64,000 nt of DNA. Origin: an uncultured Candidatus Actinomarina sp. (GTDB lineage: Bacteria > Actinomycetota > Acidimicrobiia > Actinomarinales > Actinomarinaceae). Under the pieces are notes generated by a model, which searched no databases, was not told the origin of the DNA, and saw only the letters and a list, made by a program, of their open reading frames with translations. The stretch spans positions 19,566 through 83,565 of the forward strand of contig CACFIX010000002.1 in the NCBI GenBank assembly GCA_902566515.1, written 5' to 3'. Positions 17,867 through 35,824 of the stretch are shown here, in pieces. The position numbers and the translations under genes are program-made. The stretch's first letter is position 1; each line of letters opens with the position of its first letter.

Positions 17867-17883
17867 TCTGCTACTATTCATCA

Positions 17884-17968
17884 AGAATAATGGAGCGAAG
17901 TTAGTGAAAATCTAACACTGTCCCGCAACTGTAATTCGAAAGATAAGTCAGGTCGCCTTCATTATTGT
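17884..17968 (+). promoter_or_regulatory. compact cobalamin riboswitch
   Basis: 'GTGAAAATC...CTGTCCCGCAACTGTAA' core and B12-box-like 'AAGTCAGGTCGCC'. P1 pairs aataatg (17886-17892) with cattatt (17960-17966). Upstream of a BtuF-like gene. Confidence 0.75.
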
Positions 17969-18052
17969 TAAGACAACAGTCCTCGAGAGAAGGAATGAAG
18001 TTTCTAGAAATTCTTGAAGTTTCTTTATTTTCTCAAGGTAAGAAAGGAAAAT

Positions 18053-31488: not shown

Positions 31489-33357
31489 TTAAACTAAATG
31501 TTTTTTATGCCAGCTTATTATGTGGTCAAACCTTTGTTTTCTATGAACAGGCGTTCCAGATCTAGATAACTCATGGCTTTCACCAGGAAATCTTAACATA
31601 GCTGTTTTTACACCTCTTTTTTTTAAGTTTGAAAATAGTTGCTCCGCTTGCTCTATTGGGCATCTATAGTCTTCTTGAGAGTGAATTATTAAAGTTGGCG
31701 TTTTTATACTTGACGCATATGTAATTGGACTCTTTTTTCTATATAGATTTATATTTTTTGACATGTCATCGAGCAAATACATTTCTGGAAAACCTATACC
31801 AATGTCAGATGTTCCAACCATAGTTTCCCAATTAAGTAAAGCCCGTTCAACAATAGCTGATTTAAAAGTATTTGGATTATGACTAATTATCCAAGATGTC
31901 ATAAATCCACCATATGATCCGCCCATTATGCCATCTTTTTTATTGATTATTCCCATCACTTTTTTCATTTTTTTAAACGAAGTAAGAACATCATGCATAT
32001 CATTTACACCCCACTTGTTACCACAAACATCTCTTAAGAATTCATGGCCTCTTCCCGTAGAACCTCTAGGGTTACAAGCAATCACATTGAAGCCTGCAGA
32101 GGCATAAGTTTGAAACTCATCAAAAAACGTAAATCCATATTGACTTGCGGGCCCACCATGAATGTTTAAGATTGTTGGTTTATCTTTTCCGACGAATATT
32201 CCCCAAGTATCAATTTCTGATTTACCTGTATCAATTCTTTCATATACGCAATCTCTTGTTTTAATATTTTTAACAAAAAAATCATTGGCTTTTGATATTT
32301 TATTTAGCTCACCATCTTTTAGTTCATACACCTCGTCTGGACTTGAGAATGAATTTGCTATTACATATGTGCTTCCATCGCTAAACGTAAAGTCTTTGAT
32401 GGTGATGTTTTCATCAATTAAGTCAATTTTTTTAGTACCATTCCGAAGAAGTGTTTTTCCAGAGTCTTCATATAGAAAATAAAGAATAGATTCGTACACT
32501 TCCGCTTTGACTATATTTCTGTCAAACAATCTATATTTAAAGGAAACTTTGCCTGATTGAGAGAATTTTAAAATTGTAGTATTGGTAGGCCATTCAAATC
32601 TATTCCTTAAGCCAACAGCATGAAGTTCGTCTTCATAGTAAAACAAATTTCCCATCATGCCTTTTGTAAATATATCTACAATTTTTTTATTTTTTAAAGT
32701 TCCAATTCTCTCCTCAAGCATTGTTCCTATTGAATTGTGCTTGTCATAAGAGAAAGTAAGAACACCATTATTTTCCACTAAAGAATCGATCGAAATAATA
32801 TTATGTTTATCACCGTCTACAACCTTCTCAGGTTTACCAGTTTCAAGGTTAACTTTGTAGACATTACCTCTTTTGTTATAGATGATTCCTCTTGTATCAA
32901 ATCTAAAAGGAAGATTTTCGTAGTACATAGGCTCAGAATCTTTTGATTGAATATTCTTAAATTCCTCATTCCACTCATTAGTAATCACATACAAAAACTT
33001 TCCATTATTACTCAGTAGATAGTTGTTGATACTTCCTTCAATTTCAAAAACTGATCTCACAGATCTTCCTGACTGCATTTCGATCGTTGAAGATGCATTT
33101 TTAGACTTACTCTTATCCTCAACAGACCTATTTGTTTTTACATAAAAAATGTCATTGCTTTTCTTTGCGAATTTTGGATTACTAAAGTTATTATTACCTG
33201 ACTTAAATTTTCTCCAGTTCCCTTTGCTCATTCTCCAAAGTTCACTTACATATGTATTAGATTCAAATTCCATACGAGTACTTTGCACGATTAAGTTTGA
33301 ATCTTTAGCTACAAGATTTGATAAAGTGTTGAATGAATTTAAATTTTCTGGTTTCAT
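31489..33357 (-). CDS. S9 family serine peptidase (prolyl oligopeptidase / acylaminoacyl peptidase-like)
   Basis: N-terminal beta-propeller region. Nucleophile elbow 'GGSYGGFMT'. Downstream 'SQEDYRCP' and 'GESHEL' supply Asp and His. Confidence 0.85.
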   Translation of the reverse strand: MKPENLNSFNTLSNLVAKDSNLIVQSTRMEFESNTYVSELWRMSKGNWRKFKSGNNNFSNPKFAKKSNDIFYVKTNRSVEDKSKSKNASSTIEMQSGRSVRSVFEIEGSINNYLLSNNGKFLYVITNEWNEEFKNIQSKDSEPMYYENLPFRFDTRGIIYNKRGNVYKVNLETGKPEKVVDGDKHNIISIDSLVENNGVLTFSYDKHNSIGTMLEERIGTLKNKKIVDIFTKGMMGNLFYYEDELHAVGLRNRFEWPTNTTILKFSQSGKVSFKYRLFDRNIVKAEVYESILYFLYEDSGKTLLRNGTKKIDLIDENITIKDFTFSDGSTYVIANSFSSPDEVYELKDGELNKISKANDFFVKNIKTRDCVYERIDTGKSEIDTWGIFVGKDKPTILNIHGGPASQYGFTFFDEFQTYASAGFNVIACNPRGSTGRGHEFLRDVCGNKWGVNDMHDVLTSFKKMKKVMGIINKKDGIMGGSYGGFMTSWIISHNPNTFKSAIVERALLNWETMVGTSDIGIGFPEMYLLDDMSKNINLYRKKSPITYASSIKTPTLIIHSQEDYRCPIEQAEQLFSNLKKRGVKTAMLRFPGESHELSRSGTPVHRKQRFDHIISWHKKHLV

Positions 33358-33366
33358 CTGTTAATT

Positions 33367-34731
33367 CTATTTGGTAAATCTGTCTGCAACAAACGTAATT
33401 ATGACTGATGATACTAAAGCAATAGCAAAAGTATTAAGATCAGCTAATCCGTAGAGATCTGTTGGAACAAATAAACCTCCAGGATTTTCTTCTAAATTAA
33501 CAAACAGATATCTGTACACAAACACTGAAATGAGGGAACCGACAAAAGGCAGAACAAGCAAAATGTCTTTGCTCGTTTTTTTAATTCTGTAAAAAGCAGG
33601 AAAAACAAGGCTTGTTGCTAGAAGATCAGCAACTAAAAATACAGTAAAAATATTAGTTACTCTTGTTGAAGCTATAAGCGCCAAGATAATAACTAATAAA
33701 GTTATATTATTAGCTTCTTTACTTCCTTTTTTAATTAAGTCTATCGATATAGTAGATGAGATAGCATTTTCCAGTGTATCAACGCTCGATGTTACCAAGA
33801 GAGTTGCTAAGGAGATTAAAACCAAGACAGTCATAGAATTTAAACTCAATTGATTTATAAAGCTTAAAGTCGGGACCTCCAAACCTTTCCCAGCACCAAC
33901 GGCACCCGCAATGCCTAATAGAAGAATTGTTATAAAAACCCCAAACCCTGAGTAGATACAAGCTTTTTTGATTGTCGTTTCATTCATAGCTGAGAAGGTT
34001 CTTTGCCAATAGCCAGTAGAAAATATTTCAGCTGCTGTAACTGCAATTATTACTGCAAGTGCTGATTTCAAGCTGTATGTTTCAAAAGTATTTAACCCAC
34101 CAAGTATTGCAAAATCTGTAATTTCGCTGATGTTATTTTGACTAAACCAAATACCAAACAAAAAGGTTAAAAGAAGTATTATTCCAATTCCTTGAATTTT
34201 ATCTGTCAGATAAGAAGCTTTAAATCCTGACTTATTAAGATACAAAAAAGTAGTAGCTGCAACTAACGCTGCAACCACAATACCTGAAACATCAGAGATT
34301 GCCTCAAATAAATAACTTATTGATGCGAACTCTGCTATCAAGAATGCACTCATGTAAATAACAGCTACTAAAGAAACAATTTTTTGTGCTACAGATCCAT
34401 ATTTTTTTTCAACAAATTGAGCCAAAGTAACACCGTTAGGAAGTAGTTTAGAAATTTTTGGGCCAAATATGTATATCAAAATAAAAGGAGTTGCAGCTGA
34501 GATTGCGTATCCATAAATATCATATCCAAGTCCATACCATGCAACTTCAGCTGGTGAAGTCAATATCCATAAACCCATGCCACTCGCGTAGAAACTCATA
34601 GTTAACCCAAAAGTTTTTTCTGTCTTATCAAGTACAAAGTATTCGCTATCAACTGTCTTAATATTTCTAGTAATAAGAAATACCATTACAAGCAAGGATG
34701 CAATTACAACATAAGCTATATTTGTATTCAT
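33367..34731 (-). CDS. sodium:solute symporter family transporter, TPP-riboswitch controlled (ThiV-like candidate)
   Basis: About 12-13 TM segments with an SSF-like profile. A THI-box riboswitch sits directly upstream on the same strand. Confidence 0.8.
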   Translation of the reverse strand: MNTNIAYVVIASLLVMVFLITRNIKTVDSEYFVLDKTEKTFGLTMSFYASGMGLWILTSPAEVAWYGLGYDIYGYAISAATPFILIYIFGPKISKLLPNGVTLAQFVEKKYGSVAQKIVSLVAVIYMSAFLIAEFASISYLFEAISDVSGIVVAALVAATTFLYLNKSGFKASYLTDKIQGIGIILLLTFLFGIWFSQNNISEITDFAILGGLNTFETYSLKSALAVIIAVTAAEIFSTGYWQRTFSAMNETTIKKACIYSGFGVFITILLLGIAGAVGAGKGLEVPTLSFINQLSLNSMTVLVLISLATLLVTSSVDTLENAISSTISIDLIKKGSKEANNITLLVIILALIASTRVTNIFTVFLVADLLATSLVFPAFYRIKKTSKDILLVLPFVGSLISVFVYRYLFVNLEENPGGLFVPTDLYGLADLNTFAIALVSSVIITFVADRFTK

Positions 34732-34759
34732 AAATAACCACCTTCAATAGTTTGTAATG

Positions 34760-34855
34760 GGGATAAAAGTTATGATTTCCCTTCGCTGGAATTACCCAAC
34801 AGGTTCATACGGTCGGTTTTTTGCAACCCTCTCAGCTTTTGCTCCCGCTAATTTA
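34760..34855 (-). promoter_or_regulatory. TPP (THI-box) riboswitch
   Basis: The minus strand reads GCGGGAGCAAAAGCUGAGAGGGUUGCAAAAAACCGACCGUAUGAACCUGUUGGGUAAUUCCAGCGAAGGGAA. This matches the conserved CUGAGA ... ACCUGAUCUGGAUAAUGCCAGCGUAGGGAA core. It is followed by GAAGGUGG RBS and ATG 34731. Confidence 0.8.
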
Positions 34856-34912
34856 ATAATAGCGAAAATTGTCAACAAGAGTTATCTTTTTGAGAGCATT
34901 AGTATTTCAAGA

Positions 34913-35824
34913 GTGAAATCATCTACGAACACACCATTACAGCCAACATTACTCCAAACCATTGTTGCTATTTTTATTGCTGCATTTATGTGGGGAATGG
35001 GCAATGTGTTATCTAGAAGTCTTCTCATAGAAGGTATTAACGAAATTTATCTTGTTACGGTAAGGGTTTGTTTGATTGGGTCTTTGTTATTTTTATATTA
35101 TGCCATTTTTATTAGAGAAGGATTTCAATCAACAATTTTTAAAGAAGCAACCATAACGGGGTTCTTTTCTGTGTTTTCAATTAGTTGGTTTTTTATATTT
35201 GCACTTCAATATATTTCTTCGGGTCTTGTGACCCTTCTCATAAGTTCCGCACCAGTATTTACTGTAATTTGGATAAAGCTACTTTTAAAGGATGAAGAGA
35301 TTTCAAAAACTAGATACTTAGCAATACTTGTAGGTTTTGCAGGTATTGCATATTTATTTTTAAGACAGGAAACTGGGCTTTTAGATGAAGGAAGCATACT
35401 CCTTGGAGGAACGTTGGCGTTTTTTGGAGTTCAGTGTATTTCATTGGCAACAGTGTTAAATAGAAAGTACGCACCCAAATACAAAGTTGCTACCTGGTTG
35501 AGCTACCAGTATCCATTGATGATTGTTGCATCATTAATTGCATATATATTTTTTGATATTGAGGCAGAAACATTAAACCTATCTCAAGCTTTGAGAATAG
35601 CTGCTTTAGTTATCGCAAACTTAAGTGCATTTACAGCTTTTACTTGGTTAATAAGAAGGGTTAGTGCACTGCAAGTTGCTTCTGTTGACTATCTAGTGCC
35701 TATTATTGGAGTGACTGCAGGTGTAGTATTTTTAGGTGAATCTTTTAATACAAATATTTTTATTGCGGGAGTTTTTATTTTTATTTCACTGTTGCTAAAT
35801 ACTAAGGAAGAATTTTCAAGTTAA
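34913..35824 (+). CDS. EamA/DMT family transporter
   Basis: Ten TM segments in two EamA repeats. Start moved to GTG 34913 because ORF-track residues 1-52 are the reverse complement of the TPP riboswitch. 'tagtat' sits 7 nt upstream of the GTG, so the transcript may be leaderless. Confidence 0.7.
   Translation: MKSSTNTPLQPTLLQTIVAIFIAAFMWGMGNVLSRSLLIEGINEIYLVTVRVCLIGSLLFLYYAIFIREGFQSTIFKEATITGFFSVFSISWFFIFALQYISSGLVTLLISSAPVFTVIWIKLLLKDEEISKTRYLAILVGFAGIAYLFLRQETGLLDEGSILLGGTLAFFGVQCISLATVLNRKYAPKYKVATWLSYQYPLMIVASLIAYIFFDIEAETLNLSQALRIAALVIANLSAFTAFTWLIRRVSALQVASVDYLVPIIGVTAGVVFLGESFNTNIFIAGVFIFISLLLNTKEEFSS

Follow-up and report, generated by a model that had tools for sequence, protein, structure and literature searches.

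A compact TPP riboswitch upstream of a ThiV/SSSP-family symporter, probably a thiamine importer, in an uncultured Candidatus Actinomarina

Analysis of a 64,000-nucleotide stretch of DNA from an uncultured Candidatus Actinomarina sp. (contig CACFIX010000002.1; this whole stretch is called the window here) reveals a thiamine pyrophosphate (TPP) riboswitch on the minus strand, directly upstream of a gene for a sodium:solute symporter family (SSF) protein. Judged by its sequence the riboswitch is genuine, though standard annotation overlooks it, because the leader is conserved, its helices pair and it occurs in one copy per genome beside the transporter. The gene (33367..34731, minus strand, ATG at 34731) encodes P0001, a symporter of the ThiV/SSSP family with 454 amino acids. 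We regard it as probable that this riboswitch, which has no P1 helix, controls a symporter importing thiamine, and that it does so by switching a UCCC element on and off the Shine-Dalgarno (SD) sequence.

The aptamer core CGGGAGCAAAAGCUGAGAGGGUUGCAAAAAACCGACCGUAUGAACCUGUUGGGUAAUUCCAGCGAAGGGA runs from 34847 to 34778 on the minus strand and comprises P2, a mini-P3, the junction J3-2 with CUGAGA, P3a and P4/P5, with the layout CGGGAGC-AAAA-GCUGAGAGGGUUGCAAAAAACCGACCGUAUGAACCUGUUGGGUAAUUCCAGCGAAGGGA. The original prediction had placed a TPP riboswitch inside an over-called open reading frame (ORF). Its transcription of the minus strand from 34731 to 34861 is correct base for base, and the ORF in question (34757-35824, plus strand) indeed overlaps the whole element. 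The suggested Infernal check with RF00059 gave a divided answer. A whole-window Rfam scan at the gathering threshold (54.3 bits for RF00059) returned no RF00059 match, whereas a local scan places a match at 34762-34858 on the minus strand, with 44.0 bits, an E-value of 1.5e-7 and the full model covered. The draft genome (837 kb, 69% complete) contains no other TPP match. At the curated threshold this is formally the missing RF00059 hit which the original prediction had named as evidence against itself, but it reflects an atypical aptamer and not the absence of one. The score is low because P3 has shrunk to GC-AAAA-GC and P1 is missing.

The same element is found throughout the genus. RF00059 matches of 36-57 bits are present in 36 of 41 genus genomes, one match each and every one adjoining the transporter; the exception in number is genome G019, with two matches and two transporter copies. 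Just 6 of the 41 genomes reach the Rfam gathering threshold. Transporter orthologues were found in 31 of 36 sampled genomes (G001-G036), and the five in which the transporter is missing are precisely those that have no riboswitch. The leader is kept upstream of the transporter in all 30 fetched loci, where protein identity goes down to 54%.

Alignment of 28 distinct leader sequences from the genus reveals 47 invariant columns, which include CGGGAGC, GCUGAGAGGG, CCGACCG, ACCUG and the GG of AGGGA; CUGAGA and GCGAAGGGA are likewise invariant. The pyrimidine-sensor arm is present as CGGGAGC...GCUGAGAGGG (P2 and J3-2 with CUGAGA), with P2 paired in 97% of cells. The pyrophosphate-sensor arm is present as P4/P5 (ACCUG ... 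GCG(A/U)AGGGA with a 6-nt L5 loop, (G/A)UAAU(U/G)), and 99.6% of its cells are paired. RNAalifold recovers P2, a 3-bp P3, P3a, P4 and P5 without guidance. The helices from P2 to P5 are 97-100% paired across the 28 sequences and drop to 28-43% in slid controls, and one P5 pair swaps between A-U (17 sequences) and G-C (10 sequences) in a compensatory manner. The minimum free energy (MFE) fold of the whole leader does not recover the aptamer and has a z-score of -0.27. P3 consists in 28 of 28 leaders of a G-C and a C-G pair plus a possible A-U pair, closed by an A-rich loop of 4-6 nt; at 2-3 bp it falls short of the ~5 bp or more of a P3 that docks with L5. The canonical register of P1 is paired in 20.7% of cells in the 28 leaders, which is the chance level, and RNAalifold gives no P1. 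J4-5 is 1-2 nt under the RF00059 consensus length. The conserved TPP-contact motifs suggest that the ligand is TPP.

The promoter offers an explanation for the missing P1. A probable -10 box, TATTAT, was assigned by motif at 34856..34861 (minus strand). TAnnAT is invariant or nearly so in 28 of 28 leaders at a fixed distance of 8 nt from CGGGAGC, while its flanks vary. Transcription of thiV would accordingly start near 34848-34849, 1-2 nt ahead of P2; with the -10 box only 8 nt upstream, the 5′ strand of a P1 would therefore not be transcribed. TTGACA at 34870-34875 was rejected as a -35 box, since it lacks conservation and would leave a spacer of 8 nt. A sigma-70 -35/-10 scan of the leader found 0 sites, which is uninformative for an actinobacterial promoter with a -10 box only. 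The thiV locus occurs in marine RNA libraries as metatranscriptome contigs. These were rejected as evidence for the transcription start, the 3′ end or expression, since they are unstranded and their breaks overlap by k-1 bases (e.g. 34766-34795).

Downstream of the aptamer, the SD sequence GAAGGUGG can be read directly at 34745->34738 (minus strand), 6 nt before the ATG at 34731. The spacer of about 50 nt contains a conserved UAUCCC(C) element (34759..34765, minus strand), a candidate anti-SD and anti-P4 strand; YCCC is shared by 25 of 28 leaders. UCCC is complementary to AGGGA in the 3′ strand of P4, to the GGGA of P2 and to the purine-rich SD. In single-sequence folds UCCC pairs with the SD if the aptamer strand is left out; if that strand is available, GGGA-UCCC forms in about two thirds of leaders. 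The partners differ compatibly between subclades (UCCCAUUU with AAAUGAGG, CUCUUA with UAGGAG, UCCC with GGGA). A leader peptide in the spacer was rejected for want of a canonical start codon and because the frame is disrupted by indels between the orthologues. In the mechanism that we propose, a compact TPP riboswitch would be transcribed from the -10 box 8 nt upstream, as an RNA beginning at P2. With TPP plentiful, the aptamer would be bound and the P4 3′ strand AGGGA locked; the UCCC element would then be free to pair with the SD, and translation of the transporter would fall. With TPP scarce, UCCC would be held by the GGGA strand and the SD would be open. Sequestration of the SD through the UCCC element is the part of the proposal towards which we lean with moderate confidence.

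P0001 is a strongly diverged member of its superfamily. It matches the TIGR00813 'sss' model with 42 bits, which is under the model cut-off. It has no Pfam match, PF00474 included, because it is so far diverged; nine of ten of its relatives do match PF00474. A phmmer search of P0001 against the PDB found nothing. However, a profile of the family (A2) matches SGLT1, vSGLT, CHT1, DUR3 and SiaT with E-values down to 4e-28, placing it in the SSF/SLC5 group with the LeuT fold. The family signature F-[HNS]-[QH]-[GS]-x-W-Q-R is present in P0001 as the variant F-S-T-G-Y-W-Q-R. An S-S-x-D-T-L motif resembling that of transmembrane helix 8 (S314, S315, D318) is invariant; it is consistent with the Na2 site of SSF proteins and with a putative coupling of transport to Na+. 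An exhaustive search of 1.84 billion representatives yielded just 657 relatives, with identity of at most 36% outside the genus. Among 585 relatives located in genome contigs the best are from Poseidoniales (Marine Group II archaea, MGII), with 33-37% identity over the full length. These are followed by Pelagibacteraceae with 34-38% (tblastn E-values of 1e-46 to 1e-51), and then by Halomonadaceae and others; the matches also include eukaryotic homologues from chytrids and Vitrella. THI-boxes precede most of the fetched relatives.

Phylogenetic trees unite the genus and MGII in one clade (SH-aLRT support of 99 and 100), apart from SAR11, gammaproteobacteria, Chloroflexota, Nitriliruptoraceae and eukaryotes; these trees are quick searches, midpoint-rooted and with long stems. 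The AT-rich long branches of the genus and of SAR11 are not attracted to each other, and composition therefore does not explain the grouping. P0001 thus places by sequence in the riboswitch-linked ThiV/SSSP branch, with MGII archaea and not SAR11 ThiV as its nearest neighbours. The expectation that the transporter is an SSF protein of the family of SAR11 ThiV is upheld by the 34-38% identity and by the joint family tree. The proposed placement against SAR11 ThiV holds only as far as the family, the two lying on opposite sides of its tree. The convergent form of the scavenging that had been suggested finds no support, as both transporter and riboswitch are homologous to a widespread linked family (PMC4260697) whose closest branch is that of MGII. 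We also observed that P0124/P0273 (MBD26183.1), from a metagenome-assembled genome (MAG) labelled 'Acidimicrobiaceae bacterium', nests deep in the MGII ThiV clade; its contig is probably mis-binned or mislabelled.

What such a transporter could usefully import is constrained by the thiamine genes of the genus. None of thiC, thiD and thiE was found over the family cut-off in any of the 41 genomes. A weak 'ThiE' match is ribulose-phosphate epimerase (Rpe), the 'ThiG' matches are a 60-residue stretch of PdxS, and the 'ThiL' matches are PurM-like AIRS proteins. One true ThiL occurs in the genus sample (G064:C21:358-1305, 336 bits); with its 2.1-kb contig belonging to a MAG that is 4% contaminated, it is probably foreign. 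Likewise, thiM, tenA, ThiT, the PnuC family and ThiB were found in none of the five best assemblies. Thiamine pyrophosphokinase (TPK) is over the cut-off in 37 of the 41 genomes. In our draft genome it lies outside the window (G000:C20:5149-5742; L054:1138-1752) with both TPK Pfam domains, and transketolase is also present. It has been reported that thiamine biosynthesis is absent in 84 closed Actinomarina genomes (preprint 10.64898/2026.04.03.716425); that preprint names neither the riboswitch nor the transporter. With thiC, thiD and thiE gone and TPK kept, intact thiamine (or its phosphates) would therefore be usable by the cell, and the pyrimidine precursor HMP (4-amino-5-hydroxymethyl-2-methylpyrimidine) would not. 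Of the thiamine or precursor auxotrophy that the original prediction implied, auxotrophy for thiamine is supported by this inventory of thiC, thiD, thiE and thiG: there is no true copy over cut-off, and the outcome indicates a need for intact thiamine. Uptake of HMP or another precursor, which it suggested, finds no support.

The gene content of other carriers of the transporter follows the same division. Six MGII genomes have no thiD and no thiE (0/6 each) and TPK in five of six, whereas TPK is absent from all eleven other carrier genomes. Both thiD and thiE are present in three SAR11 and two Halomonadaceae genomes and in Chloroflexota, Limnohabitans, Marinobacter, Spiribacter and Halopseudomonas; a Nitriliruptoraceae MAG has thiE without thiD. 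This split between TPK-only and thiD/thiE genomes coincides with the deepest split of the transporter tree. Seven positions distinguish the TPK clade from the others (D71/A, S78/G, A226/T, E235/N, S238/H, F362/L, A372/C). They include the acidic gains D71 and E235 and a change of the motif N-L-F-H in transmembrane helix 6 to E-x-F-S in the TPK-type clade. Profile alignment to vSGLT puts position 235 on N260 and G74-Y75-A76 on S86-Y87-E88, which we take to be the sugar site and gate of vSGLT. Acidic gains near such a site would suit a cargo that, like thiamine, is a cation. Taken with the genome context, these clade-specific residues make intact thiamine the most likely cargo. Once imported, thiamine would be converted by TPK to TPP, for the use of TPP-dependent enzymes.

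Several observations weigh against this explanation. The aptamer in the window lies about 10 bits under the curated Rfam threshold, and covariation inside one genus is thin (two pairs with double changes). TPP binding by an aptamer without P1 and with a mini-P3 is a prediction, and the start of the thiV transcript was placed by a motif. Accessibility of the SD in the partition function is 0.31 in the bound, 0.34 in the free and 0.37 in the shuffled case. RNAduplex energies beat those of shuffled spacers for the pairing of the UCCC segment with the SD in 5 of 23 leaders and for that of the P4 strand with the UCCC segment in 2 of 23, in a test whose fixed segment boundaries cut the hairpin in one subclade. 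The cargo assignment leans on gene absence in genomes that are 60-90% complete; it draws backing from the agreement among the 41 genomes and from the preprint. In SAR11, the one ThiV lineage with uptake data, HMP is taken up by whole cells and thiamine cannot serve for growth (PMC11452348). Finally, five genomes (G005, G006, G010, G029 and G032) have neither riboswitch nor transporter, and at least four of them (G010, G005, G006 and G029) have TPK. These genomes may have another uptake route, for example in G010, which is assembled in 5 contigs of 1.1 Mb. A search for orthologues of the neighbouring EamA gene in the five gave paralogues of 37-39% identity and, in G005, an orthologue fragment at a contig end. 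Assembly gaps therefore explain at least some of the absences, and others may be true losses.

The non-significant thermodynamic tests of SD sequestration, together with a CUUUU tract 3′ of the aptamer, bear on the first alternative, in which the riboswitch is real but acts through transcription (Rho-dependent or non-canonical termination) or mRNA stability instead of UCCC-SD pairing. We consider this unlikely, though a serious competitor. A scan between the aptamer and the ATG found no terminator-like site, that is, no terminator-like hairpin with a U-tract. In addition, the MGII and SAR11 leaders embed the SD in a P4 strand, an unambiguous translational design, and UCCC is kept in nearly all leaders of the genus.

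As regards cargo, ThiV/SSSP goes in the literature under the names 'thiamin/HMP' and 'thiamin precursor' transporter (PMC11223231, PMC4260697), and a cell with TPK only could use thiamine monophosphate (TMP) and TPP once they are dephosphorylated, or take TPP as it is. The cargo might thus be TMP, TPP, or an analogue or breakdown product of thiamine, or the carrier might be a broad one for thiamine and its moieties. This is improbable in our view: SSF carriers usually move small solutes that are uncharged or singly charged, the acidic gains argue for a cation and against an anionic phosphate ester, and rebuilding degradation products would take ThiD, ThiE or TenA. Still less probable is import of HMP, or of 4-amino-5-aminomethyl-2-methylpyrimidine (AmMP), to feed salvage of the pyrimidine precursor. 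In its favour, P0001 and SAR11 ThiV are members of one protein family, and whole-cell uptake data make the latter a candidate HMP carrier (PMC11452348). However, making thiamine from HMP takes ThiD, ThiE and a source of thiazole, none of which is over cut-off in the 41 genomes, and the preprint finds the pathway absent in its 84 complete genomes (10.64898/2026.04.03.716425). P0001 moreover groups with the carriers of TPK-only genomes, away from those of thiD/thiE-positive ones, and differs from the latter at conserved residues of the pocket region. A THI-box-like sequence that matches by chance or is a relic in decay, without any regulatory role (score under threshold, no P1, minimal P3, z of -0.27), can practically be dismissed, given 47 invariant columns while the proteins diverge to 54% identity, perfect co-occurrence of element and transporter, retention of all TPP-contact motifs and the same reduced design in MGII and SAR11 leaders.

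The pairing of a TPP riboswitch with a ThiV/SSSP symporter is already known. This arrangement is reportedly found in the work of Rodionov (2002, for thiV), Meyer (2009) and Carini (2014). What is new here is an Actinomarina-like member that escapes Rfam thresholds and is hidden by a mis-called ORF, and a P1-less aptamer with a mini-P3 and its own expression platform. The data also suggest that a clade shared with MGII serves auxotrophs for intact thiamine, and they name candidate specificity residues. It has been hypothesised that the ThiV/SSSP/SSSQ family, riboswitch-linked across three domains, carries thiamine or HMP (McRose et al. 2014, PMC4260697). As in that description, ours is a PF00474-type symporter clade of archaea, bacteria and eukaryotes with a recurrent upstream TPP riboswitch; unlike there, Actinomarina-like and MGII members are considered.

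The thiV of SAR11 (Ca. Pelagibacter) is similar in belonging to the same family, in having a TPP riboswitch directly upstream and in coming from a streamlined, AT-rich marine auxotroph, and its aptamer is also below the Rfam threshold and without P1. None of five SAR11 loci (L099, L101, L122, L131 and L145) reaches the RF00059 gathering score, and all five have the THI-box core. However, SAR11 has thiD and thiE, no TPK, and uses HMP, the reverse of the gene content of the genus. The expression platforms also differ. The 3′ strand of P4 is itself the SD in SAR11 and MGII leaders (GAGGGA or GGAGGGA), with the ATG 4-8 nt later (4-5 nt in SAR11), whereas the genus has the spacer of about 50 nt with UCCC and a separate SD.

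MGII ThiV (Poseidoniales loci L066-L097) is closer, as the 33-37% identity and the clade support of 99-100 already indicate. MGII leaders share the mini-P3 (GC-ACUU-GC), the missing P1 and the layout GAGAGG-stem-CGACC, and their genomes share the TPK-only context and the clade residues D71, S78, E235 and S238. They differ in coming from another domain, the Archaea, in an SD (GGAGG) formed by the 3′ strand of P4 itself and followed by the ATG after 5-8 nt, and in a canonical J4-5, CCUGAUCUGG, where that of the genus is shortened to CCUGUUGGG. In L067-L097 the thiV start comes about 100 nt downstream of the aptamer, whose GGAGG(G)A is at the same time the ribosome-binding site, a minimal design with the SD inside the aptamer. 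A normal P1 is found in leaders of Halomonadaceae, Halopseudomonas, Spiribacter and Nitriliruptoraceae, and these pass the RF00059 threshold, as do one Chloroflexota locus and the Poseidoniales loci, which are P1-less. It is possible, and we put it forward tentatively, that the clade of the genus and MGII switched its cargo from HMP, a neutral precursor, to intact, cationic thiamine through a few substitutions in the pocket (A->D71, N->E235 and H->S238), and that the gene moved between domains together with its minimal aptamer (no P1, 2-bp P3). If so, this cargo-switched clade would span two of the most abundant heterotrophs of the surface ocean, Ca. Actinomarina-like bacteria and Marine Group II archaea, and the aptamer would be the smallest natural TPP-sensing architecture.

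Two further systems are useful for comparison. The thiM riboswitch of E. coli, for which structures have been solved, is a translational OFF switch with a P1 helix and a P3 of at least 5 bp that docks with L5 by the minor groove. The aptamer of the genus shares its contact motifs (CUGAGA; ACCUG...GCG-AGGGA) and, as proposed here, the logic of ligand-dependent SD occlusion, but has no P1 and a P3 of 2-3 bp in place of the long one. The OMthi-PnuT-Tnr3 operon of Bacteroides is alike in placing an inner-membrane thiamine carrier under a TPP riboswitch in an auxotroph that depends on TPK. It differs in that the TPK of the genus is unlinked (on another contig), there is no outer-membrane receptor in this monoderm, and an S9 peptidase is perhaps controlled as well.

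In this uncultured and very abundant marine actinobacterium, the transporter is probably the single entry gate for vitamin B1 and the one gene regulated by TPP. A need for intact thiamine and not HMP would bear on the design of culture media and on how the B1 cycle of the sea is modelled. With its seven diagnostic residues, the division into TPK-type and ThiD/ThiE-type carriers offers a cheap and testable predictor of ThiV substrate. As a natural minimal design, the P1-less aptamer with a mini-P3 is worth biophysical study. Curated thresholds miss TPP riboswitches systematically in AT-rich streamlined plankton (35 of the 41 genomes, and the SAR11 loci), and the annotation of the window is corrected here on two counts, the riboswitch missed at the Rfam threshold and the over-called start of the EamA gene.

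The latter gene, encoding an EamA-family transporter, lies on the plus strand at 34913..35824 with a corrected GTG start at 34913 (304 aa). The 52-codon extension called upstream of it (34757..34912, plus strand) is non-coding, being the reverse complement of the riboswitch leader, and is broken or absent in most orthologous loci. A divergent EamA gene is upstream in 29 of 30 loci, and the starts in these align with GTG 34913 within one codon; an orthologue is called at 307 aa in its NCBI record. A TAGTAT box resembling a -10 element is located at 34900..34905 (plus strand), 7 nt before the GTG. In the orthologous loci a TAnnAT-type box ends 6-8 nt before the EamA start and there is no SD, so that the EamA mRNA is probably leaderless. 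The start at GTG 34913 behind TAGTAT, as originally predicted, is thus borne out by the alignment of 29 loci, and the conserved box spacing without an SD supports the leaderless mRNA suggested with it.

On the other side of the transporter, 9 nt downstream, is a gene of the S9 prolyl-oligopeptidase family (31489..33357, minus strand; PF00326, 153 bits). It is on the same strand and directly downstream, with a gap of 9-30 nt, in 30 of 30 loci of the genus, and is probably co-transcribed with the transporter and hence behind the riboswitch. The window has a second vitamin-sensing leader as well, an adenosylcobalamin (B12) riboswitch (RF01482) at 17870-18006 on the plus strand, which with 60.5 bits is over its threshold.

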